Shown one piece after another: positions 5,260 to 52,092 of a stretch of DNA of 64,000 bases. The notes beneath the pieces were generated by a model. The model was given only the letters and a program-made list of their open reading frames with translations. It was not told the DNA's origin and searched no databases. The stretch lies in the NCBI GenBank assembly GCA_050186295.1, contig JBFWYP010000006.1:65336-129335 (forward strand). Direction: 5' to 3'. This DNA comes from Thermoanaerobaculia bacterium. GTDB lineage: Bacteria; Acidobacteriota; Thermoanaerobaculia; Multivoradales; JAGPDF01. Made by a program: the position numbers and the translations under genes. Each line of letters opens with the position of its first letter. Positions within the stretch are counted from its first letter, which is position 1.

Positions 5260-6590
5260 CCGCGGGCGAGCTGGGGCGGAAGCTGGTCCACATGGCAGTG
5301 GGCGGGATCGCCTTCGCCGTACGGCCGCTCGGACTCTGGGGCTCGCTCGCCGCCGCCACCGCGGCGATCGTGCACAACCTGTTTCTCTTCCCGCTCTACG
5401 GCGGGCGCCGGCTCTGGCGGGCGCACGAAGCCGAGCGCGGACGGGCCCTGGGCATCGTGCTCTATCCCGTGGCGGTCCTGCTCCTGCTCGTCGCCTTCCA
5501 CGCCCGCCTCGAGGTGGCGGCGGCGGCCTGGGGAATCCTCGCCTTCGGCGACGGCATGGCGAGCCTCGTCGGCATGTCGCTGGGAGGAACGAATCCGCTG
5601 CCCTGGAACGGACGCAAGAGCTGGGTGGGAACCGCGGCCTACACCCTCTTCGGAGGGATCGGCGCCACGCTCCTGCTGGTCTGGACCGCTCCGGGCACCT
5701 ACTCGCTGCCGTTCGCGCTCGCCATCGCGTTCGCGACTGCGCTCGTCGCCGCTCTCCTCGAGTCGCAGGCGCAGGGGCTCGACGACAACCTCGGCGTGCC
5801 ACTGGTCGCCGGGCTGCTGCTCTACTGCCTGACGATGACCGCCGGTCACTGGGGTGTCGTCGCGAGCGGCGGATTCGCCCGTGCCGCCGCGCTCGGAGTC
5901 GCCGTCAACGTCGTCCTCGCGGCGGCGGCCTGGCGGACCGGTGGCGTCGGCCGCGCCGGGGCGATCGTCGGGGTGCTCCTCGGGAGCACGATCTGGGCGT
6001 TCGCCGGCTGGCAGGGCTTCCTCCTGCTCTTCGTCTTCTTCGTTCTCGGGACGGCCGCGACCAAGCTCGGCTACGCGGCCAAGGCGGCCGCCGGGATCGC
6101 GCAGGAGAAGGGGGGGCGACGCGGACCCGGCAACGCCCTTTCCAAGACCTCGGTGCCGGCCGCGGCGGCGCTCTTCGCCGCGACCACCGGGCGCCCGACC
6201 CTCTTCCTCCTGGCGCTCGCCGGCGCCTTCGCGACGGCGGCCGCCGACACCGTCTCCTCGGAGGTCGGGAAGGCCTACGGCCGGCGGACCTTCCTGATCA
6301 CCACCCTGCGGTCCGTTCCGCGCGGTACGGACGGTGCGGTGTCGCTCGAAGGGACCCTGGCAGGCCTCCTGGCGGCGCTCGTCGTCGGGGCCATCGGCGC
6401 GGCGTGCGGGCTCTATCCGGGGAGCGGTGTCGTCGCCGTGGTCGCCGCGGCAATGGTGGCGACCACGGCGGAGAGTGTGGTCGGCGCGACGCTCGAGAAG
6501 CGCGGACTCCTCGACAACGACGCGGTCAACTTCCTCTGCTCGCTGGCCGGAGCGCTGGTCGCCGCCTTCGCGGCGCCGCTGGTCGCATGA
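5247..6590 (+). CDS. Polyprenol kinase-like (dolichol/phytol kinase family) N-terminal domain fused to DUF92 (TMEM19/VTE6-like) integral membrane domain
   Basis: Multi-TM protein. The N-half has the GDGMASLVG...NGRKSWVGT motif of CTP-dependent dolichol/phytol kinases. The C-half has the GGRRG..N...AADTVSSEVG signature of DUF92. It overlaps the upstream gene by 13 nt. Confidence 0.6.
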   Translation: MAQLTAGELGRKLVHMAVGGIAFAVRPLGLWGSLAAATAAIVHNLFLFPLYGGRRLWRAHEAERGRALGIVLYPVAVLLLLVAFHARLEVAAAAWGILAFGDGMASLVGMSLGGTNPLPWNGRKSWVGTAAYTLFGGIGATLLLVWTAPGTYSLPFALAIAFATALVAALLESQAQGLDDNLGVPLVAGLLLYCLTMTAGHWGVVASGGFARAAALGVAVNVVLAAAAWRTGGVGRAGAIVGVLLGSTIWAFAGWQGFLLLFVFFVLGTAATKLGYAAKAAAGIAQEKGGRRGPGNALSKTSVPAAAALFAATTGRPTLFLLALAGAFATAAADTVSSEVGKAYGRRTFLITTLRSVPRGTDGAVSLEGTLAGLLAALVVGAIGAACGLYPGSGVVAVVAAAMVATTAESVVGATLEKRGLLDNDAVNFLCSLAGALVAAFAAPLVA

Positions 6591-13171: not shown

Positions 13172-13483
13172 TCAGGGCCGCCAGGGAGTGCCGGCGCCGA
13201 GCCAGCCGCGCGTCATGTAGTCCGACATCGTGATCCCGAACATGATGAGCAGGAAGAAGAATCCTCCCGCAGCGACCAGCGGGATCAGGCGGGTGCCGTA
13301 CTTGACGTGCATGAAGAACATGATGACGAGCGTCGCCTTGAGGATGGCGATGCCGAGCATGACGACGTTGTTGAGCGGACCGAGGTCGACGAAGGCGACC
13401 GCGACGGTGGTCGCGGTGAAGAACATCAGAGCCGCGAAGACGGCGAAGTAGACCCGCAGGGGAACGATGTGGTGTTCGGACAT
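13172..13483 (-). CDS. caa3-type cytochrome c oxidase subunit IV
   Basis: A ~100-aa protein with three TM helices (MSEHHIVPLRVYFAVFAALMFF...). It is trimmed from the 300-aa artefactual ORF 13172-14074 and lies directly downstream of cox subunit III. Confidence 0.55.
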   Translation of the reverse strand: MSEHHIVPLRVYFAVFAALMFFTATTVAVAFVDLGPLNNVVMLGIAILKATLVIMFFMHVKYGTRLIPLVAAGGFFFLLIMFGITMSDYMTRGWLGAGTPWRP

Positions 13484-13488
13484 GGTGC

Positions 13489-14154
<666 letters not shown>

Positions 14155-14187
14155 GCGGCGGCTCCTTGTCGTCGCTCTCGAACCGGT

Positions 14188-15830
<1,643 letters not shown>

Positions 15831-15834
<4 letters not shown>

Positions 15835-16805
15835 CGGGCGATCCCCTGGGCGGCGGCGTCGTTGGCTGCCGATTGCGTTGGCGAAAGACTCTTGACGTAG
15901 GTGACCAGCTGATTGAGCGTCTCGTCGGAGAGCTGGCCCTGGAACGACGGCATCAGCGGTTCGTATCCCTGGACGATCTTGGCGGTCGGCATCAGGATCG
16001 ACTCCCGGATGTAGGCGTCGTCGACCAGGACCTTCTCGCCGCTGGCGAGCGTGACCTCGGTACCGACGATGCCGTGCAGGATCGGCCCGCGGCCGCCCGG
16101 CTCGGCCTTGTGGCAGGTGTCGCAGGCGTACTGGGCGAAGAGCTGCGCGCCGGCGCCGCCCGACGACTTCGCGGCCGGAACGCCCGAGAGCCAGGCCTCA
16201 TACTCACCCGGCTCCTGCACCACCACCGTGCCGATCATCTTCGAATGCTCGGCGCCGCAGAACTCGGTGCAGAACAGGTGGTAGCGGCCGGTCTTGGTCG
16301 GTTTGAACCAGAGGCTCGAGGTGCGGCCGGGGACGACGTCCGCCTTCACCCGGAACGCGGGGACGAAGAAGCTGTGGATCACGTCCTCGGACGTCATGAT
16401 GAGTCGCGTCGACTGTCCGACCGGAACGTGGAGCTCGTTGATCTCGCGCTGCCCGGTGGGATGCTGGAGCTTCCACATCCACTGCTTGCCGGTGACGTAG
16501 TACTCGACGGCGTCGGCGGGCGGCTTGTAGAGGCGGAAGAAGACCTTGAGGCCCCAGCCGAAGGTGAAGAGCACGATGAGCAGCGGGATGACCGTCCAGG
16601 TGATCTCGAGGAAGGCGGAGTTCTCGAAGGCGCTGCCGACCTCGTCGGGACTCCGGCGGCGATACTTGATCGCGAAGACGATCACCATGGCGGCGATGAG
16701 CACCGTGAAGAATGTGCTCATTCCGACCAGGAAGAACGTCAGCCGATCGACCTCGCCCGCGAGTTCCGAAGCCTGTTCGGGCACGAAGGGAATCTTGAAA
16801 TTCAT
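15831..16805 (-). CDS. ctaC: Cytochrome c oxidase subunit II with C-terminal cytochrome c domain (caa3 type)
   Basis: CuA centre HSFFVPAF...[12 protein letters not shown] plus a C-terminal CDTCH heme-c motif. ATGA overlap with ctaD. Confidence 0.85.
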
Positions 16806-17707
16806 ACCGAGGCGACTCCTTCAACCGAAGCGCCGGCGCTCCGGTGTTTCCGGCGTTCGCTGCGCAACATCCAGAGGATCGAGCCGAAGAGCACCAGCAG
16901 GGTCACCGTCGCCGCCACCTTGAGCGACAACATGGTGCCGGCGGTGTACTTGCCCAGCGCGGCGTCGTAATTGAAACAGAGCAGGAGGAGCTTCTCGGCG
17001 AGTCCGCCGATCCGCCCTTCGCCGGCCTCGAACAGGGCCAGCTTGAGATCCTTCGGCGCGTACTCGACGCCGTAGAGGTAGCGCGAGATGCGACCGTCGG
17101 CGGTCAGCGCGATGACGCCGCTGGCGTGCGCGTACTGACGGGTGGTCACGTCGTAGGCATAGCGGAAGCCGGCGGCCTCGGTGAGCCGCGCGACGTTTGC
17201 TTCGTCCCCGGTCAGGAAGTGGATTCCGGAAGCGCGCTCCGGGTGGCCGTAGCGCGCCACGATCGCGGCCTTCTTCTCGGCGGCGAGCTCGGCGGTGTCG
17301 GTCGGGTCGAAGCTCACGAAGAGGAGCTCGAACTCGTCTCCCGGAGCGTAGGGAATTCCCTTCATCGACGCCGCGACACCGATCGCCGTCTGCGTGCACA
17401 GGACGGGGCAGCGGTAGTAGACCAGCGCGAGGAGGACCGGCTTCTCGCCGAAGTAGTCACCGAGGCGGACGGCGCGGCCGGTCTCGTCGCGCAGCTCGAG
17501 ATCGAGCGGCACGCTCACGCCGAGGCGCTGGTCGAAGCCGACGCGCTCCTGGATCTGCTGCGCGGTCAGGGCGCCCGGCTGCGACTCCCGGCGGGCGAGA
17601 CCCGGCCCGGTGAACACCTTCTCGGCGACCAGCGGCGCGGCGAGCTGGCTCGAGAGAGCCAGCGCCAGCAGGGCGCGGTGGGCGACGGAGGGGTGCATCG
17701 GACTCAT
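16802..17707 (-). CDS. SCO1/SenC copper chaperone
   Basis: Thioredoxin-fold CPVLC copper-binding motif (YYRCPVLCTQ), a conserved His, and a C-terminal TM anchor. ATGA overlap with ctaC. Confidence 0.8.
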   Translation of the reverse strand: MSPMHPSVAHRALLALALSSQLAAPLVAEKVFTGPGLARRESQPGALTAQQIQERVGFDQRLGVSVPLDLELRDETGRAVRLGDYFGEKPVLLALVYYRCPVLCTQTAIGVAASMKGIPYAPGDEFELLFVSFDPTDTAELAAEKKAAIVARYGHPERASGIHFLTGDEANVARLTEAAGFRYAYDVTTRQYAHASGVIALTADGRISRYLYGVEYAPKDLKLALFEAGEGRIGGLAEKLLLLCFNYDAALGKYTAGTMLSLKVAATVTLLVLFGSILWMLRSERRKHRSAGASVEGVASV

Positions 17708-17717
17708 TCGGCGTGAC

Positions 17718-18185
17718 TCAGTGCCCCGACCCGGGCGCGGTGTGCTCTTCGGCCGCGGCGGCGGCGACGGGCTCCGGCGCAGCGACCGGCGGCGTCGCCG
17801 TGGCGTCGGCGGCCGGCTCGGGCACGGCGAGGCGGTCGATCGCTCTCTCGATCGGCATGTGGGCGATGCCGGCTCGCTGGTCGACCCAGCCCCAGGAGGA
17901 CAGGGCGGCGCTGGTGCTCCGGCGGAGCTCCTGGAGCTCGACCTCTGGCCGGGACTGGAGATGCGGCTCCGGCGGCACCGCTGGAACGCGGGCTTCGGCG
18001 AGCGGTGACGGCTTCGGGTCGGCCCGCTCGGTCCAGCTCCCGAGCGCCTTGTAGAGGAAGTAGCCGACGATCAGGGAGCCGATGGTGATTCCGGCGAGCC
18101 AGGCGGCGATCTCGAGGACCCGCCGGACGTCGATCTCGGAATCGAAACCGCCGGACTGCCCGGGAGACGGAGAGTGACTACTCAT
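17718..18185 (-). CDS. Small single-TM membrane protein of the ACIII-caa3 operon (possible ActG-like)
   Basis: 155 aa with one TM helix (LEIAAWLAGITIGSLIVGYFLY) and a Pro/Ala-rich tail. Assigned by position between actF and sco1; 8-nt overlap with actF. Confidence 0.4.
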   Translation of the reverse strand: MSSHSPSPGQSGGFDSEIDVRRVLEIAAWLAGITIGSLIVGYFLYKALGSWTERADPKPSPLAEARVPAVPPEPHLQSRPEVELQELRRSTSAALSSWGWVDQRAGIAHMPIERAIDRLAVPEPAADATATPPVAAPEPVAAAAAEEHTAPGSGH

Positions 18186-19374
18186 GGCCGAGGGCTTCCT
18201 GGAGGTTGGGGGCGTTGACCGGCAGGAGCGGCGCCTTGGCGAGCTCGCGGGTGAACGCGAAGAGCCAGATGCCGCCGAGCGCCAGGGGAGTCGCGAGATA
18301 GAGCCAGTGGATCGAGAACGCCTCGTGGTGCCAGGTCGGGCGGGAGAGCCACACCAGGTCGACCAGGCGCATGAACAGGACGAATGCCGCGACCCGGGCG
18401 AGCGAACGGGTGCGCTCCTTGACGCCGCGCGAGAGCAGGATCAGGAACGGGAAGAAGAAGTGGAAGACGAGGAGTCCGGCAGCCACCACCCCCCAGCCGC
18501 CGTGGAAGCGCTCCTGGAACCAGATCGCCTCTTCGGGCAGGTTGCCCTGCCACATGATGATGTACTGCGAGATCGAGAGGTAGGTCCAGAACATCACGAA
18601 GGCGAACAAGAGCTTGCCGTAGTCGTGCGAGAGCGTGCGGCTGATCACCGCTTCCATCGGCGCCCGCTGGCGCAGCCAGTTGACGATCAGGATGACGAAC
18701 GACATGCCGGCGAGCGCCTGGCCGGCGACGAAGATCCCGCCGTAGAGGCTCGAGAACCAGTGCGGATCCAGCGACATCAGCCAGTCGAAGCCGAGGAAGG
18801 TGTTGATCACCACCCAGAGCAGCAGACCGACGGCGCTCATGTTGTGCATCGAGCCCTTGATCGCCGGATCGCCCGTGGCGTCCTGGCGCCGCGACTTGGC
18901 GGAGAGGACGTAGGCATAGAGGCTGAAGATCGCGATGGCGAAGATCGTCCGGCCGATGAAGAACGGCACGTTGAGGTAGGGCGCCTTGTGCTCGAGCAGC
19001 GCGTCGCCGGCCACGTGCGCCGGATCGGCCCAGAGGAAGAGCTCCTTCATGCCGAAGAAGAGCGGTATCGCGGCGAGGCCGACAAGGGGCAGGGTGCGCG
19101 AGCCGGCCTCGAGGATGCGGCGTGCCGCGAGGCCCCAGGCGCCGCCCGACAGGTGTTGCATGAGCAGGAAGCCGAGACAGCCGGAGGCGACGGTGTACCA
19201 GAGGAGCCAGGCGACGAGATAGGCCTGGAAGAACTCGGCGCGGGCGACGAAGAGACCGGCGACCGAGGCCGCGGCGGCGACGGCTCCGACGACGAGCGCC
19301 TTGCCACCGAGGCCCGAGAGCGCGCCGGGGGGCGCGACGTCTTCTGCGTGGAGTGGGAAATGGAGCGTCGTCAT
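18178..19374 (-). CDS. actF: Alternative complex III subunit ActF (NrfD/PsrC-like polytopic membrane subunit)
   Basis: A ~400-aa, 10-TM NrfD-like protein paralogous to ActC, in actABCDEF order. Confidence 0.75.
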   Translation of the reverse strand: MTTLHFPLHAEDVAPPGALSGLGGKALVVGAVAAAASVAGLFVARAEFFQAYLVAWLLWYTVASGCLGFLLMQHLSGGAWGLAARRILEAGSRTLPLVGLAAIPLFFGMKELFLWADPAHVAGDALLEHKAPYLNVPFFIGRTIFAIAIFSLYAYVLSAKSRRQDATGDPAIKGSMHNMSAVGLLLWVVINTFLGFDWLMSLDPHWFSSLYGGIFVAGQALAGMSFVILIVNWLRQRAPMEAVISRTLSHDYGKLLFAFVMFWTYLSISQYIIMWQGNLPEEAIWFQERFHGGWGVVAAGLLVFHFFFPFLILLSRGVKERTRSLARVAAFVLFMRLVDLVWLSRPTWHHEAFSIHWLYLATPLALGGIWLFAFTRELAKAPLLPVNAPNLQEALGHE

Positions 19375-19396
19375 AGCGCGGTCGGGAGTCCTCGTT

Positions 19397-20041
19397 CTAG
19401 TGGTGCCCGGCTTCGCCGGAATGGGCGTCGGATTCGGCGGCGACGGGCTGGTCGAGTCGTGCCCGGTCCTCGGGAGCGAGCGTTCCGGCGTCGACGTGCT
19501 GCGAGAGCTGCAGCGCGCGGATGTAGGCCGCGATCGCCCAGCGATCGGCGGGCGGGACCTGCGGCGCGTAGGTCGACATGACGCCGAAACCGTTGGTCAT
19601 GACGTCGAAGAAGTAGCCCACCGGCGCCTCCCGCAGCCGTGCCTCGTGGTACGAGGGGGGCTGCTTGTAGCCGCGCTGGACGACCATCCCGCGGCCGTCG
19701 CCCAGCTTGCCGTGACAGGGGGAGCAGAAGATGTCGTAGCGCTCGCGGCCTCTGAGAAGCAGGGCGCGGGTCATCGGCATCGGCAGTTCGGTCGTCATCG
19801 AGCCGTCGGCGGCACGGCCGGTGAAGAACAGCTTGTCCTCCCGGAGCTCGCCCCGCGCCACGGTGTGGGCGGGAATCTCGCGGATGCCGCTGCCGTCGGC
19901 GAAGAAGTCGCTCGACCGGTACGGCTTGAGCTTCGGCTGATTGTGCATGTCCTGGCGGCAGCCTGCGGCGACGAGCGCCAGTGCAGCCAGGGAGAGAGCG
20001 AGCGCCGGACCGGTCCGGCGGCGGAGGTCAGGACTCGACAT
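19397..20041 (-). CDS. actE: Alternative complex III subunit ActE (lipoprotein monoheme cytochrome c)
   Basis: Lipobox LVAAGC and a single CSPCH heme-binding motif. Confidence 0.7.
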   Translation of the reverse strand: MSSPDLRRRTGPALALSLAALALVAAGCRQDMHNQPKLKPYRSSDFFADGSGIREIPAHTVARGELREDKLFFTGRAADGSMTTELPMPMTRALLLRGRERYDIFCSPCHGKLGDGRGMVVQRGYKQPPSYHEARLREAPVGYFFDVMTNGFGVMSTYAPQVPPADRWAIAAYIRALQLSQHVDAGTLAPEDRARLDQPVAAESDAHSGEAGHH

Positions 20042-20581
20042 CGTGAACCTCCAGGGCGCCGGTGCCGAGCAGGAACTCGCGCGTCGCCGTGCGCTCGAAC
20101 TTCGCGTCCTCGGCCTCGACGCAGAGGAAGAAGCCGTCCCGCGAGGCCTTGCGGCGGAAACTCTCGACGTTGAACACCGGGTGATAGGGCTGCGGCAATC
20201 CGTTGAGCGCCATCATGCCGATCCCCGCCGAGAACGACGCGAGGAGGATGGTGCATTCGAAGATCACCGGGATGAACGCCGGCCAGCTGTTGTACGGCTT
20301 GCCGCCGATGTTCATCGGGTAGTCGATGGTGGAGGTCCAGAACTCGAGGCCCCATCCGCCCAGCGCGCCCATGATGCCGCCGGCGAGACAGATCAGCGGC
20401 ACCCGCGAACGCTGGTGGTTGCAGACCTCTTCCGAGATCGCCTCGACCGGGAACGGAGTGAACGCGTCGATCGCGTTGAATCCCGCCCGCCGTGCCTTGC
20501 GCACGGCCTCGAGCAGCTCCTGCGCCGATCCGTACTCCGCGAGGATGCCGTAAATGCCGGCCGTCGATTCCGTCATGGCAG

Positions 20582-20585
<4 letters not shown>
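20028..20585 (-). CDS. actD: Alternative complex III subunit ActD
   Basis: About 185 aa, with the real start MTAMTESTAGIYGIL... overlapping the actC stop (ATGA). One C-terminal TM helix. Assigned by position and size between actC and actE. Confidence 0.6.
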
Positions 20586-25074
<4,489 letters not shown>

Positions 25075-25100
25075 GTCGGGCTTCACGGATCCCCTGTCAA

Positions 25101-25751
25101 TTAGCGATGGCAGGTCGAGCAGCTGACCTTGCTCTGTACGTTGTGGGCTTCGGCCCAGATCGCCTGCTGCGCCGCGAGGTCGGCCGGGGGCTGCCAGAAG
25201 ACGTTGGTGACCTCGGAGGCCGGCCGCAGGTTCTTCACCGGATCGCGGTGGCAGTCGAGACACCAGCTCATCGTCAGCGGCTGACCCTGGTACATGAGCG
25301 GCATCTTGTCGACGGGGCCGTGGCAGGTGGTGCAGGCCACGCCCTTGGCGACATGGATCGAGTGGTTGAAGTAGACGAAGTCGGGCAGGTCGTTGACCCG
25401 GTTCCAGCGGATCGGCTTGCCTTCGCGGTAGCTCGCCCGGATCGGCTCGAGCAGCTGGGCGTTCGTCCACAGCTGGTTGTGGCAGTTCATGCAGGTCTGG
25501 GTCGGCGGGATCCCCGCCGACGCCTGGCTCTCGACCGCGGTGTGGCAGTAGCGGCAGTCGATTCCGATCTGGGCCACGTGGTGATCGTGGGAGAACGGCA
25601 CCGGCTGTTCGAGAACGATCCCCTGACGCGTCACGTAGCCGGAATGGGCGACGCGCCAGAGCGCGAAGCCTCCCGCCGCGGCGAGGAAGAGGGCCACGAA
25701 GATCGACGCCTTCGCAAAGGCGTTCGCACTGCGAGAGAAGATCTGCGCCAT
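25101..25751 (-). CDS. actA: Alternative complex III subunit ActA (membrane-anchored pentaheme cytochrome c)
   Basis: An N-terminal TM anchor followed by five CxxCH motifs (CRYCH, CMNCH, CTTCH, CLDCH, CSTCH). Confidence 0.8.
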   Translation of the reverse strand: MAQIFSRSANAFAKASIFVALFLAAAGGFALWRVAHSGYVTRQGIVLEQPVPFSHDHHVAQIGIDCRYCHTAVESQASAGIPPTQTCMNCHNQLWTNAQLLEPIRASYREGKPIRWNRVNDLPDFVYFNHSIHVAKGVACTTCHGPVDKMPLMYQGQPLTMSWCLDCHRDPVKNLRPASEVTNVFWQPPADLAAQQAIWAEAHNVQSKVSCSTCHR

Positions 25752-25814
25752 GGTTTCAGACTCTTATCAGTTTCCCGGCAAGATATCGGACGGCCTCGAA
25801 TAGGCGCAACAACC

Positions 25815-25830
25815 TGTGAAAACTTTCACA
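25815..25830. promoter_or_regulatory. Perfect CRP/FNR-family-type palindrome TGTGAAAACTTTCACA (TGTGA-N6-TCACA), 64-79 bp upstream of the actA start codon
   Basis: Read directly from the sequence. The 7-bp arms TGTGAAA/TTTCACA are perfect inverted repeats. A TTGACA hexamer lies just upstream on the coding (minus) strand. Confidence 0.4.
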
Positions 25831-25942
25831 TGTAGAACGGGGTTGTCAACGCGCCGGCGGCGAACGCGTGTGCGGACCGCGACCGCGGAAGCGCTGTGGT
25901 CGCGCTCCGGGTACGCGAACCGGTCGGTGGTTCGGGAACGGT

Positions 25943-26746
25943 TCAGAACAGACCGCGCCACTCGAGGAGCAGAGCGTGGAGGCGCGCGCCGTTCGCCGCA
26001 CCCGTGCGGACGATCAGCTTCTGCGCCGGCGACAGCGCTTCGAGCTCCCGGTCACGGTAGACGTAGACCCCTTCGTGCGCTTCGACCTCGATCGATTCCG
26101 GAGGGACCGGAGCGGCGAGCAGGTGGTCGAACACCTCGCGGAGCGTGGCGTCCAGCGACTGCTCGGGCGACGCCACCTCGTTCCAGGCCGACTCGACGAG
26201 CGGCCGCAGGATCTTCCAGGCCGGACGCGCCGCGCCGACGTCGATCGACTGCAGCGTGTCGACGATGCCGTCGTAGCGGGCGTGGGTCGCCGGGTCGATG
26301 ACCAGCCGGCCCGCTTCGCGACGTACCGCGAACGGTCCGCGGACGCTCGCGACCTCGGCCAGGACCGGGCGCGGGTTCTTGCGCTCGGCGATCGAGAGGA
26401 CCGCCGCGACGAATCGACGCACCAGCGAGTCGTGCCCGAGCCAGCTCGACCAGATCCCGGAGGCGGAGAGCGGCAGGAGCTGTCCGCGCACGAAGGCGTC
26501 GCTCTCGTCGAGGGCCGGCAGATTCACCGCGGCGGCCGGGGCCGTCTGGGCCGTTGCGGCGGCGGCTGGTGCTTCGGCGGCCGGCGCCGGCGCCGGAGGT
26601 GGCGGCGGAGTGCGCCGGAACGCGAAGTAGGCGATGCCCGCGGCCGCCAGGACGACCGCGGCCACCGCGGCGGCGAGCGTGCCGGTCGAGGAGCGGCGCT
26701 CGGGATCGGGGTTCCAGTCGGGGCTGGGCTGCAGTTCGTCGTCCAC
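25943..26746 (-). CDS. Membrane-anchored hypothetical protein (DUF3014-like)
   Basis: N-terminal TM (LAAAVAAVVLAAAGIAYFAF), a Pro/Ala-rich linker, then a ~180-aa globular domain. No catalytic motifs recognised. Confidence 0.45.
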   Translation of the reverse strand: MDDELQPSPDWNPDPERRSSTGTLAAAVAAVVLAAAGIAYFAFRRTPPPPPAPAPAAEAPAAAATAQTAPAAAVNLPALDESDAFVRGQLLPLSASGIWSSWLGHDSLVRRFVAAVLSIAERKNPRPVLAEVASVRGPFAVRREAGRLVIDPATHARYDGIVDTLQSIDVGAARPAWKILRPLVESAWNEVASPEQSLDATLREVFDHLLAAPVPPESIEVEAHEGVYVYRDRELEALSPAQKLIVRTGAANGARLHALLLEWRGLF

Positions 26747-28453: not shown

Positions 28454-28602
28454 TTCGGCTCCTTGGAGTTCCCGGTCGGGGGTGACGTTCGCGGGCGATC
28501 CCGGGTGTGGTCTCGGCGTCGGACTCGGCGCCCGCATGCGAGGGTGCGATTGTAACCGAGCCGGTTGCGGAAGCACGACGAGCGGGGTCTAAGATCTCCG
28601 AC

Positions 28603-31600
28603 ATGCGATCCGCGCTCCGCCTCTCGAGGATTCTCCACCGGTTCGGTTCCTCCCGTTCGTGCGCGGCAGGGGTCGCCTTTGGTCTCGTCGTCGTCGTCGT
28701 CGCCGGCTGCCAGGCGGGTGCCGCGACGATCGTCGAAAACGGAAAGAAGAGCGCGATGTCCGAAGCCGGCCCAGAGACCTGGAAGGAGATCGATCGCCTG
28801 GTCGGCGAGCAGAAGCTCGAGGCGGCGGCGAAGCTGGTCGATGCCCGGGTCGCTGCGGCGGACGAAGCCCGGAACGACGACGAGCTCGCCCGGGCACTGG
28901 TGCGGCGGGCGCAGCTCCGCATCGCCCTCGGCGGCTTCGCGACCGCGGTCGAGGCGCTGCGCGCGAGCCGCTGGCCGGAGAAACCGCTCGCGCATGCCGC
29001 GGTCGAGCTCTACTACGCGCACGCCCTGCTCGACTATCTCGAGGCCTACGACTGGGAGATCCGGCAGCGCGAGCTCGTCGTCTCGGGCGAGACTCTCGAC
29101 CTCGAGCGCTGGACCGCGGCGCAGCTCGCGGACGAAGCCGAGCGGGCGTTCCTCGACGTCTGGGAGAGCCGCGAGGCGCTCGGCGCCGTCGCAGTCGACG
29201 ACTTCCCGTACCTGCGCCCGAACGACTTCCCCGAAGGGATCCGCGACACGCTGCGCGACGCGGTCTCCTACCTCTTCGTCGAGCGGATGCTCGGCAACTC
29301 GCGCTTCTGGTCGGCCGCCGAATCGAACGAGGCCTGGCAACTCGACCTCGAGAACCTGATCGCCGACCGCCCCGTCGTGCCCGCGACGGGGCCGGTCCAC
29401 CCGCTGCTCCGTGCCGCCGTCGTGCTCGCCGACCTCGAGGCGTGGCACCGCGGCAGGAGGGAGCTCGGGGCCGAGCTCCAGGCGCGGATCGCGCGGCAGG
29501 CGACGATCGCCGATCACCGCGAGGGCGCCACGGACCGCGGGCGCCTCCGCGCGGAGCTCGAGCGGCGGCTGCCGCGCTACCGCGACGACCCGTGGTGGGC
29601 CGTCGGCGTCGCCGACCTCGCCGGCGACATCGATCGCGACGACCCGGCGCCGGATCACCGGATCCGCGCGCGCGAGCTCACGCTCCGGGGCGAGCAGGCC
29701 TATCCCGGGAGCTACGGCGCCGACCGCTGCCGGCAGCTGCGGGAGGAGATCGAGGCGCCCGACTTCTCGGTCCAGGCGATGTCCTCGGACGGACCGCGGG
29801 AGCGGTCGTTCGAGGTGACGCACCGCAATCTGCCGCGTCTCCACTTCCGTGCCTTCCGTGTCGATCCCGACGCCGAGCTCGGGCGGGCGGAGTTCCGGGG
29901 GGTCTTCCCCAACGACGCGCGCGAGATCGAGCGCCGGCTGGCCGACAGACCGGTCGCCGAGTGGACCGCCGAGCTGCCGCCGACGCCGGACTACTCGTCG
30001 CACCGCACGTTCGACACCCCGCCCCTCGCCGAAGCGGGCCTCTACTTCGTCGTCGCCTCCGCCGACCGGTCGTTCCGGGCGCGGGGCAACCGGCGCGTGG
30101 CGGTTCCGTTCCTGGTTTCGGACCTCGTCCTCCTCGAAGGGGCGGCGAACGAGAATCCCTGGGAGGTCCGCGTCGTGTCGGGAGGAAGCGGCGCGGCGAT
30201 CGCCGGCGCCGAGGTCGCGCTCTACCGCAACACCTGGCGCCGGGCCCCCGAGCGGATCGCGACGGAGAAGAGCGGTGCGGACGGCCGCGCGCGGCTCGCG
30301 GCGGAGACCGGCCGCGACGCGACGAACTTCCTCGTGGTGGCGCGGCGCGGGGGCGACATCGCCTTCTCGCAGCGCTACCTCTACGGCCGGCGGAGCGAGC
30401 CTTCCGAGCAGACCGCCGCCCTCGTCTTCACCGACCGCGCGATCTACCGGCCACTGCAGAAGGTCGAATGGAAGATCCTGGGCTACCGCAGCGGTCCGGC
30501 GCGCGGGCGGCTGGTACCGTCGCCGCGGATGCCGGCGACGGTCTCGCTCCTCGACCCGAACGGCGAGGAGGTGCAGGAGCTCGCCGTCACCACGAACGAG
30601 TTCGGGACGGCGGCGGGCGCGTTCGAGATTCCGGCCGGGCGCCTCCTCGGGCTCTGGACGGTCCGCACGACGGCGAACGGCTCGGCGTCGATCCGTGTGG
30701 AGGAGTACAAACGGCCCACGTTCGAGGTCGAGATCGGCGAGCCGGACTCGGCGCTGCGGCTCAACCGTGTCGCCGAGCTCGTCGGGAACGCGCGCTACTA
30801 CTTCGGCCTGCCGGTGGCGGGCGGCAGGGTCGCCTGGCGCGTGACGCGGACGCCCGAGTGGCCGGTCTGGTGGCGGTTCTGGGCGCCGCCCGGCGGCGCC
30901 ACCGAAGCGCAGACGATCGCCAGCGGTGTGGCTCCGCTGTCCGACGACGGCACCTTCCGCGTCCGCTTCACACCCGCCGCCGACGAGCGCGAGAAGACGA
31001 GCGGCGCGACCTATCGCTACCGCCTCGAGGCGGACGTCACCGACGACGGCGGCGAGACCCGGAGCGGCGACCGTACGTTCCGCCTCGGCTGGGTGGCGGT
31101 CGAGGCGACGCTCGAGAAGGAGGATCCGCTCTTCGTCGCCGGTGAGGCGATGACCGTCGTCGCGACGCGCCGCGATCTCGACGGAGTCGCGCGTCCGGGC
31201 AGCGGGAGCTTCCGGCTCGTCGCGCTCGACGTGCCGGCGAGAGCGCCGCTCCCGGCCGCGCTCCCCGTCCGTCCCGCGCACGCGGCGGCGAAGGACGATC
31301 CGTACGCGACGCCCGGCGACGCGCTCCGGCCGCGCTGGTCGGGCGGCACGACCGTCGCCGACACGCTCGCCTTCTACGCCGACGGCCGCGAAGTACGGCG
31401 CGGCGAGCTGGCGCACGATGCGCGGGGGCGCTCGACGATCGACCTGGCGGGCGTCCCGGCCGGTGCCTATCGCCTGCGGTACGCGACGACCGACCCGTTC
31501 GGCGAGACCTTCGAGAACCGTCTCGACTTCGTCGTCGCCGCGACCGCAGGCGGAGGCGCGAAACTCGCGCTGCCGGCGGCGATCCTCTTCGATCGCGGCG

Positions 31601-34600
31601 AGGCCCGGCCGGGCGATACCGCCAGGCTCTGGGTGCACTCCGATCTCGGTGACGCTCCGGCCGAAGTCGAGCTCCACCGCGGAGACGAGATCGTCTGGCG
31701 GAAGCAGGTGCGTCTCCGGGGCACGACCTGGTTCGACGTCCCGGTGGCCGAGGCGGATCGCGGCGGGCTCGCCGCGCGCCTGGTGCTGGTCGCCGAGCAT
31801 CAGCTGATGGCGCCCGGCGTTTCGCTCGCCGTGCCGTGGACGAACCGTGAGCTGGCGGTCGAGATCTCGTCGCTCCGCGACAAGCTGACGCCGGGCGGCA
31901 GGGAGAGCTTCCGCGTCACGGTGAAGGACGCGAAGGGGCGCGCCGTCGAGGCGGGCGCCGCCGAGCTCCTCGCCTCGATGTACGACCGCAGCCTCGACCT
32001 CTTCGCCCCGTTCTCGCAGCCGCGGCCGATCGCCCTCTTTCCGACCACGACCTCCCTTCCGCCGGTGCAGAGCAGCCTCGGCACGACCGGTGCGGTCTGG
32101 ATCCGCGACGAAGAGTGGGTCAAGCGCAGCGTGGCGCGCAGCGTCTCGGGCGATTCGTTCGTCGAGATCTCGCCCTACGGCATCGGCGGACCGGGCGGGA
32201 GGTTCCGCCGCTTCGGCGGCTACGCGCGCGGCGGCGTCGCCATGGCCGACGCGGCGATGCCGGCTTCGGCTCCGCCACCGCCGCAGCCGCTGGCGAAGGA
32301 GGCGGAGGCGGACCAGGGAACGGCGGTGGCGGAGAGCCTCGCGGTGCGGTCGGAGGCCCCCACGGCGGACGTCCCGCTGCGCTCGAACTTCGCCGAGACG
32401 GCGTTCTGGCGACCGCAGCTCCTCACCGGCGCCGACGGTTCGGCGACGATCGAGTTCACCGTGCCCGACTCGGTGACTTCGTGGCGGCTCTGGGTGTCGG
32501 CGCTCACGAAGTCGTTCGCCTCGGGGTTCTCGGAGCGCCAGGTCGACTCGGTGAAGGAGCTGATGGTGCGGCCGTATCTGCCGCGCTTCCTGCGCGAGGG
32601 GGACCGCGCCGAGCTCAAGGTGGTGGTGAACGACGCCGGCGATTCGCCGCTCTCCGGCACGGCGCGACTCGAGATCTTCGACCCGGAGACGAACGAGTCG
32701 CTGCTCGGCGAGTTCGGTCTCGACGCCTCGTCCTCGTCGCGGCCGTTCCGGGTCGAACCGGGCAGGGGAGTCGACCTCCTCTTTCCGCTCGCGGCGCCGC
32801 ACCGCGTCGGCCCGACCGCCTTCAAGGTCACCGCCACGGCGGGGAATCTCTCGGACGGCGAGCTGCGGCCGCTTCCGGTCCTGCCGTCGCGGATCCGGCT
32901 CGCGCAGTCGCGCTTCGTGACCCTGAAGAACGCCGACCGCCGCGAGATGACGTTCGACGAAATGAAGCTCCCCGATCCGACGCGCGAGAACGAGCAGCTC
33001 GTGGTGACCGTCGACGGCCAGCTCTTCTACTCGATGCTCGACGCCCTGCCGTATCTCGTCGACTATCCGTACGAGTGCACCGAGCAGACGATGAACCGCT
33101 TCGTCTCGACCGGGATGCTGGCGAGCCTCTTCGACGGCTACCCGGCGCTCGCCGCGATGGCCGCGGAGATGGCGGAGCGGGAGACGCCGTACGAGCGCTT
33201 CGATGCCGCCGATCCGAACCGCAGCATGGGACTCGAAGAGACTCCCTGGCTGCGCGAGTCGCGCGGCAGCGCCGCCGGCGCGGAGGGCGTCGATTTCCTG
33301 CGCGTGCTCGACCCGACGGTCTCGCGAGCCGAGCGCGACGACGCCCTGGCCAAGCTCGCGAAGGCGCAGCTGCCGAACGGCGGCTTCCCCTGGTTCTCCG
33401 GCGGTCCGGCCTCGCCCTACATCACTCTCTATCTCGCGAGCGGCTTCGCGCGGGCGGCCGAGTTCGGTGTCGACGTGCCGAAGCCGATGGTCCAGCGCGC
33501 CTGGAGCTATCTCGGCGCCGAGGCGAAGCGCGACTGGCTGCCGAAGGCGATCGCCGACGACTGCTGCTGGGAGCTCCTCACGTTCCTCAACTACGTCGCC
33601 TCGTCGTATCCCGACGAGTCGTGGGTGGGCGACTTCCTCGAGCCGGCCGACCGGAAGCGGATCCTCGACTTCTCGTTCAAGCACTGGAAAGAGCACGCCC
33701 CGCTCCTCAAGCTCCAGCTCGCGCTGACGCTCCAGCGCGCGGGGCGTCCCGCGGACGCGAAGCTGGTGCTCGCGAGCGTCATGGACTCGGCGAAGACGAC
33801 GCGCGACGAAGGCACCTTCTGGCAGCCGGAGGACCGCTCCTGGCTCTGGTACAACGACCGGATCGAGACCCACGCCTGGGCGCTGCGGGCGCTGATGGAG
33901 ATCACCCCCGACGATCCGCGCCGCGACGGACTGGTGCAGTGGCTGTTCCTCAACAAGAAGCTCAACCACTGGAAGTCGACGCGCGCGACGGCGGAGGTGC
34001 TCTATTCGCTCGCCTGGTACCTCCGGGCGACGAATCAGCTCGCGGTGCGCGAAGAGGCGTCCGTCACCGCGGCGCACCGGACGACGACGTTCGTCTTCGA
34101 ACCCGAACGCTTCACCGGCAGGAAGAACCAGGTCGTCGTCGAGGGTGCGAAGCTCGACGCGGAGAAGCGGCCGGCCGATGCCACGGTCGTCGTCGAGAAG
34201 ACGACTCCCGGTCTCCTCTTCGCCTCGGCGACCTGGCGGTTCTCGACCGAGGAGCTGCCGGCGGAGGCGCGCGGCGATCTGTTCGAGGTCACGCGGCGCT
34301 ACTTCCGGCGCGTCAAGACGGGCGACGAGGTCACGCTTCGTCCGCTCGACCGCAGCGCGCGCCTCGCGGTCGGCGATGAAGTCGAAGTCCAGCTCTCGGT
34401 CCGTGCGAAGGCGGCGGCCGAGTACGTGCACCTCCGCGATCCGCGCCCGGCCGGGCTCGAGCCCGATCGCGCGGTGTCGGGGTGGAAGTGGGATCTGGGC
34501 CTCGCGCGCTACGAGGAAACGCGCGACAGCGGCTCGAACTTCTTCTTCGAACGGCTGCCGGCCGGCGAGTACACGATGAAGTACCGCCTGCGGGCGAACC

Positions 34601-34704
34601 TGGCCGGCGAGTTCCGGAGCGCCCCCGCCCAGCTCCAGTCGATCTACGCTCCCGAGTTCGTCGCCTACTCGGCCGGCGAGCGGCTGGTCATCGCCTCGCC
34701 CTGA
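28603..34704 (+). CDS. Alpha-2-macroglobulin family lipoprotein with thioester motif (bacterial A2M, ~2033 aa)
   Basis: Lipobox VVVVAGC after the signal peptide, thioester motif YPYECTEQTMNRF (CxEQ), and a long MG-domain-like region. Start trimmed from 28507 to the ATG at 28603. Confidence 0.75.
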   Translation: MRSALRLSRILHRFGSSRSCAAGVAFGLVVVVVAGCQAGAATIVENGKKSAMSEAGPETWKEIDRLVGEQKLEAAAKLVDARVAAADEARNDDELARALVRRAQLRIALGGFATAVEALRASRWPEKPLAHAAVELYYAHALLDYLEAYDWEIRQRELVVSGETLDLERWTAAQLADEAERAFLDVWESREALGAVAVDDFPYLRPNDFPEGIRDTLRDAVSYLFVERMLGNSRFWSAAESNEAWQLDLENLIADRPVVPATGPVHPLLRAAVVLADLEAWHRGRRELGAELQARIARQATIADHREGATDRGRLRAELERRLPRYRDDPWWAVGVADLAGDIDRDDPAPDHRIRARELTLRGEQAYPGSYGADRCRQLREEIEAPDFSVQAMSSDGPRERSFEVTHRNLPRLHFRAFRVDPDAELGRAEFRGVFPNDAREIERRLADRPVAEWTAELPPTPDYSSHRTFDTPPLAEAGLYFVVASADRSFRARGNRRVAVPFLVSDLVLLEGAANENPWEVRVVSGGSGAAIAGAEVALYRNTWRRAPERIATEKSGADGRARLAAETGRDATNFLVVARRGGDIAFSQRYLYGRRSEPSEQTAALVFTDRAIYRPLQKVEWKILGYRSGPARGRLVPSPRMPATVSLLDPNGEEVQELAVTTNEFGTAAGAFEIPAGRLLGLWTVRTTANGSASIRVEEYKRPTFEVEIGEPDSALRLNRVAELVGNARYYFGLPVAGGRVAWRVTRTPEWPVWWRFWAPPGGATEAQTIASGVAPLSDDGTFRVRFTPAADEREKTSGATYRYRLEADVTDDGGETRSGDRTFRLGWVAVEATLEKEDPLFVAGEAMTVVATRRDLDGVARPGSGSFRLVALDVPARAPLPAALPVRPAHAAAKDDPYATPGDALRPRWSGGTTVADTLAFYADGREVRRGELAHDARGRSTIDLAGVPAGAYRLRYATTDPFGETFENRLDFVVAATAGGGAKLALPAAILFDRGEARPGDTARLWVHSDLGDAPAEVELHRGDEIVWRKQVRLRGTTWFDVPVAEADRGGLAARLVLVAEHQLMAPGVSLAVPWTNRELAVEISSLRDKLTPGGRESFRVTVKDAKGRAVEAGAAELLASMYDRSLDLFAPFSQPRPIALFPTTTSLPPVQSSLGTTGAVWIRDEEWVKRSVARSVSGDSFVEISPYGIGGPGGRFRRFGGYARGGVAMADAAMPASAPPPPQPLAKEAEADQGTAVAESLAVRSEAPTADVPLRSNFAETAFWRPQLLTGADGSATIEFTVPDSVTSWRLWVSALTKSFASGFSERQVDSVKELMVRPYLPRFLREGDRAELKVVVNDAGDSPLSGTARLEIFDPETNESLLGEFGLDASSSSRPFRVEPGRGVDLLFPLAAPHRVGPTAFKVTATAGNLSDGELRPLPVLPSRIRLAQSRFVTLKNADRREMTFDEMKLPDPTRENEQLVVTVDGQLFYSMLDALPYLVDYPYECTEQTMNRFVSTGMLASLFDGYPALAAMAAEMAERETPYERFDAADPNRSMGLEETPWLRESRGSAAGAEGVDFLRVLDPTVSRAERDDALAKLAKAQLPNGGFPWFSGGPASPYITLYLASGFARAAEFGVDVPKPMVQRAWSYLGAEAKRDWLPKAIADDCCWELLTFLNYVASSYPDESWVGDFLEPADRKRILDFSFKHWKEHAPLLKLQLALTLQRAGRPADAKLVLASVMDSAKTTRDEGTFWQPEDRSWLWYNDRIETHAWALRALMEITPDDPRRDGLVQWLFLNKKLNHWKSTRATAEVLYSLAWYLRATNQLAVREEASVTAAHRTTTFVFEPERFTGRKNQVVVEGAKLDAEKRPADATVVVEKTTPGLLFASATWRFSTEELPAEARGDLFEVTRRYFRRVKTGDEVTLRPLDRSARLAVGDEVEVQLSVRAKAAAEYVHLRDPRPAGLEPDRAVSGWKWDLGLARYEETRDSGSNFFFERLPAGEYTMKYRLRANLAGEFRSAPAQLQSIYAPEFVAYSAGERLVIASP

Positions 34705-42162: not shown

Positions 42163-42390
42163 GGCTCTCCTCCCTGCGCCGGGGCGCGAGCGACCTGCTG
42201 CGGAGACCGGGCCGGGGACCTCGTGATCCGGTTCAGGGAGTCATAACCGGCCCGGTCGCCGGGCGATTCCACCCGCCCGTTCCACCGCTTGACTGTCGCG
42301 GCGGATCCTAGGATAGCGTCCCGGAACGAACCAGGAGTTGGAAGTTGGGAACTCGGGAGATCTGTCCGTACGGAGATCCGCGACGCGACC

Positions 42391-43449
42391 ATGCGCCTCT
42401 CGTACCTGCGATTCTCGCCGCTGCTCCTCGCCTTGATGGCGAGCGCAGCGCAGGCTGTGGAGCCGCCGCCGGAGCGGCTGTCGGCCACCGGCCTCTACGC
42501 CGACATCACCACCAAGCGCGTGGCCGAAGGTCTGGTCGGCTTCACTCCGCAGTATCCGCTGTGGACCGACGGCGCGACGAAGCGGCGCTGGATCTACCTG
42601 CCGCCGGGCACGTTCGTCGACGCCTCCGATCCGGACGCCTGGCAGTTTCCGGTCGGAACCCGGGTCTGGAAGGAGTTCGCCTTCGAGCGGCGTGTCGAAA
42701 CGCGAATGATCGAGCTCGCCGATTCCGGCTGGCGGTTCGTCTCGTATCGCTGGTTGCCGGACGGCAGCGACGCCGTGCTCGCGGCCGAGTTCGGGGAGCG
42801 CGGCGTCTACACCGTGGCGCCGGGTGTCCGGTACGACCTGCCGAGCCGCTACGACTGCCGCGCCTGTCACGAGGGCAACGTCTCGCGCCTGCTCGGCTTC
42901 ACCGCGCTCCAGCTGTCGAGCGATCGCGACCCGGCTGCGATCCACGGCGGTGCGCCGAACGAAGGCGATCTCGATCTCGCGGCCCTGGTCGCCCGCGGGC
43001 TGGTGCGGAACCTTTCCCCAGCGCTCGTCGCGGCGCCGCCGCGCATTCCGGCACGGACGCCGCTCGAACGCACGGCGCTGGGGTATCTCGTCGGCAACTG
43101 CGCCAACTGCCACAACGATCGCGGCGCCCTGGCCGACCTCGGCTTCTCGCTCGAGGTGCGCGTCGCTCCGGACAGCGACCCGGTGCCGGGAGCGATCCGG
43201 ACCGGCTTCGGTCAGCCGGCGCACTATCAGCCGGCCGGTGAGCCGGCGCACCTGCGATTCGCCGCCGGCGAGCCCGAGGAAAGTGCGGTCTGGCGGCGGG
43301 TTTCGAGCCGCGTCGCCGTGACGCAGATGCCGCCGCTCGGCACGAAGCTCGTCGACCGCGAGGCCGTCGAGCTCCTGGAACGATGGATCCGCAGCGCTTC
43401 GTCCGTGGAGGGCGAAGTTTCGAAGTCGTCCGAAAAGGAGATGCGATGA
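42391..43449 (+). CDS. Secreted c-type cytochrome-like protein with two CxxCH motifs
   Basis: Signal peptide MRLSYLRFSPLLLALMASAAQA, with CRACH and CANCH heme-binding motifs. The N-terminal ~150 aa lack heme motifs (unknown domain). Confidence 0.5.
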   Translation: MRLSYLRFSPLLLALMASAAQAVEPPPERLSATGLYADITTKRVAEGLVGFTPQYPLWTDGATKRRWIYLPPGTFVDASDPDAWQFPVGTRVWKEFAFERRVETRMIELADSGWRFVSYRWLPDGSDAVLAAEFGERGVYTVAPGVRYDLPSRYDCRACHEGNVSRLLGFTALQLSSDRDPAAIHGGAPNEGDLDLAALVARGLVRNLSPALVAAPPRIPARTPLERTALGYLVGNCANCHNDRGALADLGFSLEVRVAPDSDPVPGAIRTGFGQPAHYQPAGEPAHLRFAAGEPEESAVWRRVSSRVAVTQMPPLGTKLVDREAVELLERWIRSASSVEGEVSKSSEKEMR

Positions 43450-44078
43450 GAGGGAGAATGTCGTTTTCGGGGGTTGTCGTGTGGGTGATTGCCGCGGGTT
43501 CGCTGGCGCCGCTCCTGGCGCAGGGGGAGGCGCCCCCGCTGCCGCCGCCGCTCTCGGAGGCCGCGCTCGCCGCGGCCACGTCGCGCGCCAACCCGGTCGC
43601 TCGCGGTGAGTTCCTGGTCCGCATGGGCAGCTGCAACGACTGCCACACGCCGACCAAGATGGGGCCGAACGGCCCCGAGACCGACTACTCGCGTCTGCTC
43701 TCCGGCCATCCCGAGGCGGCGGGCGTGCCGCCGTACGTGCAGTTTCCGGAAGGGAGCCCCTGGATGGCCGCCTTCTCCGGCACCTTCACCGCCATCTCGG
43801 GTCCGTGGGGAATCTCGTTCACACGCAACCTGACGCCCGACAAGGAGACCGGTCTCGGCTCCTGGACGGCCGACGAATTCGTCGCCACGATCAAGAGCGG
43901 GAGAAAGCAGGGGCGCGGACGCGAGCTCCTGCCGCCGATGCCGTGGCCGCAGTGCATGGCGCTCTCCGAGGAGGATCTGAGGGCGATCTTCGCCTACCTG
44001 CAGTCGATCCCGGCGATCAAGAACAAGGTCCCGGATCCGGTTCCCCCCCCGGCTCCGCCCGCCGCGCCGGCGCACTGA
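43446..44078 (+). CDS. Monoheme cytochrome c family protein
   Basis: Signal peptide and a single CNDCH motif. AAGGAG RBS 5 nt upstream. The start overlaps the upstream stop (ATGA). Confidence 0.6.
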   Translation: MRGRMSFSGVVVWVIAAGSLAPLLAQGEAPPLPPPLSEAALAAATSRANPVARGEFLVRMGSCNDCHTPTKMGPNGPETDYSRLLSGHPEAAGVPPYVQFPEGSPWMAAFSGTFTAISGPWGISFTRNLTPDKETGLGSWTADEFVATIKSGRKQGRGRELLPPMPWPQCMALSEEDLRAIFAYLQSIPAIKNKVPDPVPPPAPPAAPAH

Positions 44079-52055: not shown

Positions 52056-52092
52056 GTCGGCGGTCGCCGTGCTCCGGTCCGGACTCTTCGCC

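Follow-up and report, generated by a model that had tools for sequence, protein, structure and literature searches.

Upstream of actA, the first gene of a gene cluster for alternative complex III (ACIII) and a caa3 oxidase in a Thermoanaerobaculia bacterium, a short stretch of DNA carries a perfect palindrome. The question raised by this locus is which kind of protein reads the palindrome and whether it switches the cluster on or off. A preliminary description had assigned it to a CRP/FNR-type regulator. In the following, the window denotes the whole stretch of DNA that was analyzed, with a length of 64,000 nt and a G+C content of about 70%. The palindrome is located in a gap of 191 bp (25752–25942) that divides actA from a co-directional gene encoding a DUF3014 protein. 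The features discussed are listed in Table 1.

Table 1 Features of the actA upstream region and the adjoining genes in the window
Feature	Position	Strand	Basis and remarks
Proposed Rex-type operator (ROP-like)	25815..25830	.	palindrome; orthologous sites in 23/153 relatives
TTGACA, −35-like element of the proposed P1	25844..25849	−	conserved; putative −35 role
AAAGTT, weak −10-like element (A at 2, T at 6)	25821..25826	−	putative; within the operator, 17 nt past TTGACA
TTGCGC, −35-like element of P2	25804..25809	−	5 nt downstream of the operator
TATCTT, −10-like element of P2	25780..25785	−	putative; 18 nt past TTGCGC
actA, multihaem cytochrome c of alternative complex III, first gene	25101..25751	−	Pfam Cytochrome_C7 and c3
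actB	21976–25074	−	Pfam
Regulated unit, actA to coxIII	13489..25751	−	Pfam and gene calls; co-transcription presumed
DUF3014 gene, outside the regulated unit	25943..26746	−	gene calls
GC-rich inverted repeat just past the DUF3014 stop	25865..25917	−	20-nt arms, 80% complementary

The palindrome and the actA operon

The palindrome, TGTGAAAACTTTCACA (TGTGAAAGTTTTCACA when read on the gene strand), consists of perfect 7-bp arms around a 2-bp center, and the repeat finder lets the arms stretch to 10 nt at 90%. It lies 64–79 bp 5′ of the actA start codon (first base of the ATG at 25751, minus strand) and is preceded on the coding strand, 13 nt upstream, by the hexamer TTGACA (25849–25844). Direct reading of the window sequence agrees with the preliminary description on the inverted arms, on the distance to actA, on the TTGACA hexamer upstream and on the match to TGTGA-N6-TCACA, which is exact. 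Extended by one base at either end, the 18-bp window site ATGTGAAAGTTTTCACAG (25814–25831) agrees with TTGTGAA-N4-TTCACAA at 12 of its 14 specified positions.

A role of the palindrome as terminator or hairpin was rejected, as a stem of 7 bp around a loop of 2 nt is unable to fold in this way. No Rfam family matched the region around the palindrome and no conserved RNA fold was found in the actA 5′ region. Taken together, these three observations indicate that the palindrome acts as DNA.

Downstream of the palindrome, the genes follow in the order actA, actB, actC, actD, actE (cytochrome c), an actF-like ORF, an ORF of 155 aa, SCO1, coxII, coxI and coxIII. They share one strand and either overlap or follow each other closely, and their order is the same in L081, L085, L169 and L172. 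The 11 act-cox genes are presumably co-transcribed, and ‘ACIII-caa3 super-operon’, the name given to them previously, is a fair label for so tightly packed a set. ActA has a length of 216 aa. At least 8000 homologs were scored, and the 120 matches listed are 64–99% identical; the closest named relatives are MAGs of Thermoanaerobaculia (Acidobacteriota). An identical actA gene call, along with the same calls for the other genes of the run, is found in an NCBI assembly of this organism, GCA_050251375.1. The NCBI contig with the identical actA (JBFWMX010000012.1) has a length of 79.7 kb and cannot contain the whole window, which by its offset would begin 8.3 kb ahead of the contig; the window probably comes from a different record of this organism.

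On the other side of the gap, the GC-rich inverted repeat past the DUF3014 stop is predicted to form a hairpin of −38.6 kcal/mol (z = −2.1) without a T tract, and the terminator scan reported nothing at this location. The repeat may be a terminator-like hairpin that isolates the act promoter from the upstream gene. Farther away, a bacterial alpha-2-macroglobulin gene (2,065 aa) is encoded at 28507–34704 (+), with a DUF4412 gene and an esterase gene between it and actA; this neighborhood is syntenic in L085, L169 and L172. Away from the operon, a second set of respiratory accessory genes is found at 51171–52701 (+) and 42289–44078 (+). It comprises two cytochrome c genes, another SCO1 and a heme O synthase of the UbiA family, and the palindrome is absent upstream of all of them.

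Conservation of the site and its position relative to predicted promoters

By itself, the looser pattern is weak evidence: TGTGA-N6-TCACA with at most one mismatch is found once in the window, where 0.40 matches are expected. The longer form TGTGAA-N4-TTCACA (12 positions) has one exact match in the window compared to 0.00 in 100 shuffles, and the best further copies of the motif in the window need three mismatches, which is chance level. For comparison, ACIII loci from 80 genomes and 80 metagenome contigs were used, as well as a number of long contigs from close relatives (1.04 Mb of DNA in all), and actA was located in every fetched ACIII locus. A site with at most one mismatch is present in 23 of the 153 distinct actA upstream regions, whereas in 300 dinucleotide-preserving shuffles such regions numbered 0.08 on average and never more than 2. 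All 24 matches of this quality in the 1.04 Mb are located within 300 bp upstream of actA, a portion that comprises 4.4% of the DNA.

The site is present in every close relative examined (L001, L055, L085, L089–L091, L169, L171 and L172), even though the DNA farther upstream is unalignable in these relatives and the upstream gene has changed. The promoter-operator block is kept next to a divergent amine oxidase gene in L085 and next to an esterase gene in L169 and L172. Named carriers of the site belong to Thermoanaerobaculia, Vicinamibacterales and other Acidobacteriota, and among the named loci the site is confined to those labeled Acidobacteriota. The genomes that bear the site include GCA_050251375.1, JAXLQW01, CAZUAT01, CAWKPF01, BTUO01, DASXIR01, JBCKZH01 and ERZ25039503 (contig_34402). 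Judged by this conservation, the palindrome is almost certainly a functional protein-binding operator that has been retained in front of the ACIII-caa3 operon in several acidobacterial lineages.

Related sequence elements occur in further loci. Variant dyads of the forms TGTGACGTAATTCA(T/G)A and AGTGACGTGGTTCACA are found in L012, L015 and L072 (about −73 from actA) and in L137 (−74); their distance from actA equals that of the window site, and they may be diverged forms of the operator. A set of 29 Terriglobia-like loci between L033 and L168 (e.g. L108 and L112) is without the full palindrome. These loci have a highly conserved promoter, CGCGACAA-N17-TATAAT with TATT before it, about 100–140 bp upstream of actA, and a lone half-site, GTTTCACA, that is found 5–6 nt past the −10 element on the predicted start. 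This half-site may represent a degenerate operator, or one half of an operator, for the same regulator.

In the window, two promoter-like arrangements, P1 and P2, are found at the operator (Table 1), neither of which passes a strict sigma-70 consensus scan of the window. The −10-like element of P1 at a spacer of 17 was read directly from the sequence and not taken from the promoter scan; with it and a predicted P1 start near 25814, the operator spans about −16 to −1 of the predicted P1, with its center at about −8. Our own promoter scan chooses GAAAGT at a spacer of 16 instead (9/12), which places the operator at −15 to +1. The upstream hexamer is shared, as TTGAC[A/G/T] 12–13 nt before the site, by L001, L055, L085, L089, L090, L169 and L172, in which the site would likewise cover a weak −10-like element of the AAAGTT type.

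P2 is the block that follows the site by 5–7 nt throughout the window clade (the window, L001, L055, L085, L089, L090, L169 and L172). Its form in Thermoanaerobaculia relatives is TTGC(G/A)C-N18-TATCGT-GCCGC. The −35-like part is kept as TTGC[G/A][C/G] in L001, L055, L085, L089, L169 and L172; the −10-like part reads TATCGT or TAGAGT in relatives, and in the window it overlaps a GATATC palindrome (25782–25787). A predicted P2 start near 25773 puts the operator at about −57 to −42 (center about −49.5). The P2 block (25780–25809) is possibly the main act promoter, or else a site bound by another factor. Elements resembling GATATCGT recur at varying distance in the distant loci L016, L043, L114 and L138.

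In relatives outside this clade, the site coincides with the predicted core promoter. Eight loci (L040, L120, L127, L135, L136, L138, L139 and L150) have the site as filling of the spacer of TTGACA-N17/18-CAT(T/A)AT (9–11/12), i.e. at −26 to −11 of these predicted promoters, with the center at about −18.5. In further loci, the site is located at or shortly past the predicted start: it begins 12 nt past the −10 element of a 10/12 promoter match in L016, occupies −1 to +15 of a 9/12 match in L026, and is found 6–8 nt past TTGCAC-N17-TA(G/C)(G/A)(A/G)T in L092, L114, L147 and L171. For L057, where the promoter scan found none, TTGAAC-N17-TAAGCT was recognized by eye, and the site follows 5 nt on, over the predicted start. 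The center of the site is at +7 to +13 relative to the predicted start in other relatives. Wherever relatives have a recognizable sigma-70 promoter, the site thus appears to occupy the position of a repressor with respect to the predicted start, and the regulator quite likely works as one. Activation, as implied by the earlier reading, is probably the wrong regulatory mode.

Candidate regulators of the ACIII-caa3 operon

The consensus of 22 distinct sites is c-T-T-G-T-G-A-A-A-n-n-T-T-T-C-A-C-A-(A/T). The T before TGTGA (position 0) is found in 20 of 22 sites; positions 6 and 7 are A in 18 and 17 sites, respectively, and positions 10 and 11 are T in 21 sites each. The flank is asymmetric: C occurs at position −1 in 19 of 22 sites, and the mirror G is absent. 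This consensus fits all 14 specified positions of the Rex operator TTGTGAA-N4-TTCACAA. Two publications give the Rex operator consensus as TTGTGAAnnnnTTCACAA (PMC5317091, PMC5355995), and a generalized form, TTGTGAANNNNTTCACAA, is described as conserved across phyla in a passage of PMC5317091 that cites Ravcheev 2012. Footprinted Rex operators of Streptomyces avermitilis include TTGTGACCTGCTTCACAT and TTGTGATACGGTTCACGA, and the variants observed here (TTCACAT, TTCACGA and the left half GTGAC) recur among them (PMC5355995). Such footprinted operators are located between or over the −35 and −10 elements or shortly past the start, and in Streptomyces Rex directly represses the respiratory operons cydABCD, nuoA-N, atp and ndh2 (PMC5355995). 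The genes behind the site in the window (ACIII, SCO1 and caa3 oxidase) likewise belong to energy metabolism, as is characteristic of Rex targets.

We therefore regard, with moderate confidence, the palindrome as an operator to which a dimeric repressor would bind and through which it would control the ACIII-caa3 operon; the most likely repressor is Rex, which senses NADH/NAD+. The site, its actA-specific conservation, its agreement with the Rex consensus and its overlap with core promoters in relatives are direct observations, and from these we infer Rex as the binding protein and a response to NADH. As long as the ratio of NADH to NAD+ is low, a Rex dimer would bind the 18-bp site ATGTGAAAGTTTTCACAG. 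It would then cover the −10 and start region of P1, just upstream of P2, and exclude RNA polymerase. Accumulating NADH would make Rex leave the DNA, and ACIII and the caa3 oxidase would be made. In this manner, respiratory capacity in the quinol-to-oxygen branch would be matched to the supply of reducing equivalents.

Several points weaken the case for Rex. The −10 element of P2, the best conserved element of its kind, is situated downstream of the site, and −49.5 is an unusual position for repression. A simple symmetric dimer does not explain the one-sided C-T flank. There is no regulon context, because a second Rex-like site was found neither in the window nor in the loci. Finally, TGTGA-N6-TCACA fits as well, so that the sequence alone is also compatible with a CRP-family protein.

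The regulator gene was searched in the window and around actA. According to Pfam, the approximately 47 ORFs of the window contain neither Rex domains nor CRP/FNR domains (cNMP_binding, HTH_Crp_2). The loci were searched by phmmer with B. subtilis Rex as well as E. coli CRP and FNR as queries and with an HMM of Rex derived from representatives at 50% identity. No rex gene was detected within 1.5–10 kb of actA in the 160-odd loci by Rex HMM, phmmer or Pfam lists, and no CRP/FNR homolog was detected near actA in the six-frame ORFs of any locus by phmmer with the E. coli queries, a search of limited sensitivity. Outside the Gram-positives Rex is widespread, with 547 clusters (50% identity) at E ≤ 1e-30. 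The named matches come from Gemmatimonadaceae (Gemmatimonadota), Longimicrobiaceae, Eisenbacteria, Tepidisphaeraceae (Planctomycetota) and Tectomicrobia; none is from Acidobacteriota, which says little, as about 10% of the rows are named. Acidobacteriota may encode Rex, as Swiss-Prot reportedly has curated entries for Koribacter and Solibacter.

Genes for Rex were encountered in five soil genomes of the comparison (L083, L084 and L086–L088; 3.9–4.3 Mb, 58–63% G+C) at positions 5001–5642. They are 62–64% identical to Thermus Rex, and each abuts the end of a SPOR-domain gene or overlaps it by 1 base. A weak ROP-like sequence, GTGTCAATTTTTTCACA[C/T] with three mismatches, is found directly past rex in L083 and L086–L088, which are close to one another, and not in L084. 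These genomes are probably Deinococcales-like and not acidobacterial.

Of the alternatives, control by a dimer of the CRP/FNR family survives best, although we consider it rather unlikely. A protein responsive to cyclic nucleotides or redox state would bind TGTGA-N6-TCACA; it would activate P2 from about −49.5 or, like GlxR or Cmr, repress. Besides the exact match to the pattern, the poor −35 element of P2 (TTGCGC) is of the kind found at activator-dependent promoters, and in L138 and L147 a P2-like promoter would have the site near −73.5 and −82.5, close to class I positions. Acidobacteriota have many genes of the CRP/FNR family, and repressors are known among its members. However, the CRP pattern is a subset of the 22-site motif and leaves the outer T and the inner AA/TT unexplained, which are part of the Rex consensus; the E. 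coli CRP consensus, aaaTGTGAtctagaTCACAttt, has A and not T before TGTGA. The geometry also speaks against this family. In the window, the TTGACA hexamer is found on the upstream and not on the downstream side of the site. CRP activates from near −41.5, −61.5 or further helical repeats, which the site does not match relative to the predicted promoters; −49.5 is no known CRP activation position. Distances of the site to P2-like promoters are about −49.5, −51.5, −57.5, −73.5 and −82.5, i.e. not in one helical phase, and this variation argues against a phase-dependent activator. Activation is also incompatible with the location in at least eight relatives, where the site falls within a strong promoter's spacer or onto the predicted start. 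The domain search of the window and the homolog search around actA, the latter of limited sensitivity, count against the family as well.

For FNR itself the case is clearer. The FNR box TTGAT-N4-ATCAA has no match with up to two mismatches in 25752–25942, and the half-sites found here, GTGAA/TTCAC, agree with it at 6 of 10 specified positions; an FNR box was ruled out on these grounds. Window-wide, ten FNR-like boxes with up to two mismatches were counted compared to 3.3 expected, a number reached in 1 of 100 shuffles. None of them is in the act promoter, and one (13302–13315) adjoins coxIII downstream. A LacI-type operator (TGTGAGC/GCTCACA) was likewise rejected, as its half-sites are spaced differently. 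What stands of the preliminary description is a real, conserved regulatory site that fits TGTGA-N6-TCACA, together with the plausibility of a redox-linked regulator. Its assignment to the CRP/FNR family is probably wrong: the FNR box is absent, CRP is doubtful, and the conserved T, the inner AA/TT and the repressor position fit Rex better.

It is less likely still that the GTGAAA-N4-TTTCAC dyad is the operator of an Acidobacteriota-specific repressor from another family, e.g. TetR, MarR, ArsR or GntR. The confinement of the site to Acidobacteriota-labeled loci among those named would suit such a protein, as would the asymmetry of the site, with C-T on the upstream side only, and the search results for rex in the window and beside actA. 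The match of the consensus to the known, phylum-spanning Rex operator at 18 of 18 positions would then have to be a coincidence, and no regulator gene of any family consistently adjoins actA. An equally improbable version in which the protein is neither Rex nor a classical CRP supposes an acidobacterial repressor that has converged on, or inherited, the dyad; the levels of ACIII-caa3 in soil Acidobacteriota would then be set by an operator-occluded P1 and a constitutive P2. If a phylum-specific repressor of this kind were true, the asymmetric C-T flank and the Terriglobia-type half-site GTTTCACA would be parts of one control system.

A MerR-type activator, which would untwist a dyad placed in an over-long −35/−10 spacer, is very improbable: in the group-2 relatives the dyad does lie between TTGACA and an alternative −10 element (TATAAA/TATTAA) at a spacing of 20–21 nt, but the same loci offer a normal spacing of 17–18 nt to CATTAT/CATAAT (10–11/12), and in the window clade and group 3 the site is outside any spacer, so that its position varies between clades. 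The motif is also unlike known MerR-family dyads. A chance AT-rich palindrome without function, for which the count of the loose CRP pattern in the single window could be quoted, is effectively refuted by the conservation of position and sequence across relatives with diverged flanking DNA.

Acidobacteriota are among the most abundant soil bacteria, and the regulation of their respiratory chain is little known. To our knowledge, a regulator of alternative complex III has not been described for Acidobacteriota. Among the papers searched, judged partly by their titles, none connects Rex to ACIII or to the classes of Acidobacteriota concerned here. The conserved operator in front of actA offers one 18-bp site and one candidate sensor, Rex, which responds to NADH/NAD+. 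The control by Rex favored here predicts that accumulating NADH lifts the repression of ACIII-caa3. If true, the Rex regulon would come to include ACIII-caa3 and reach into a Gram-negative soil phylum, and the 22-site matrix could be used to map the remaining regulon in MAGs. A new regulon member and a new taxon would thereby be added to a known type of switch, which is incremental rather than surprising.

Comparison with known regulatory systems

E. coli CRP sites and the GlxR/Crp sites of Actinobacteria share with the site described here the core pentamers and their 6-bp spacing, and they are bound by a dimeric winged-helix protein. In contrast to them, the sites upstream of actA have T and not A before TGTGA, carry the inner AA/TT, and are found, relative to predicted promoters, at an operator position instead of −41.5 or −61.5. 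The FNR/Dnr boxes (TTGAT-N4-ATCAA) at terminal-oxidase promoters are likewise palindromes in front of respiratory operons with a redox or oxygen rationale, but differ in the half-site sequence, as seen from the agreement at 6 of 10 specified positions. Ravcheev et al. reportedly did not have Acidobacteriota among the taxa they analyzed in 2012.

The Rex proteins of Thermus aquaticus and T. thermophilus (T-Rex; PDB 1XCB, 3IKT) and the generalized consensus TTGTGAAnnnnTTCACAA provide a second comparison, and the 22-site consensus agrees with it as given in PMC5317091.

The closest likeness is found in the Rex operators (ROPs) of Streptomyces coelicolor and S. avermitilis, located at cydABCD, nuoA-N, atp and rex-hemACD, which have the same 18-bp repeat TTGTGAA-N4-TTCACAA (PMC5355995). 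They are found in or just past the core promoter of respiratory-chain operons, where they mediate repression in Streptomyces (PMC5355995), and a comparable location is predicted for the sites in relatives with strong promoter matches. The variant endings CACAT and CACGA occur in both. Differences concern the center of the site, which is A/T-rich here (AAAnnTTT) compared to the GC-rich CGCG of Streptomyces, and the second promoter-like block downstream of the site in the window clade. The target also differs: the putative operator described here, recognized from its sequence, precedes an operon for ACIII and a caa3 oxidase in Acidobacteriota.
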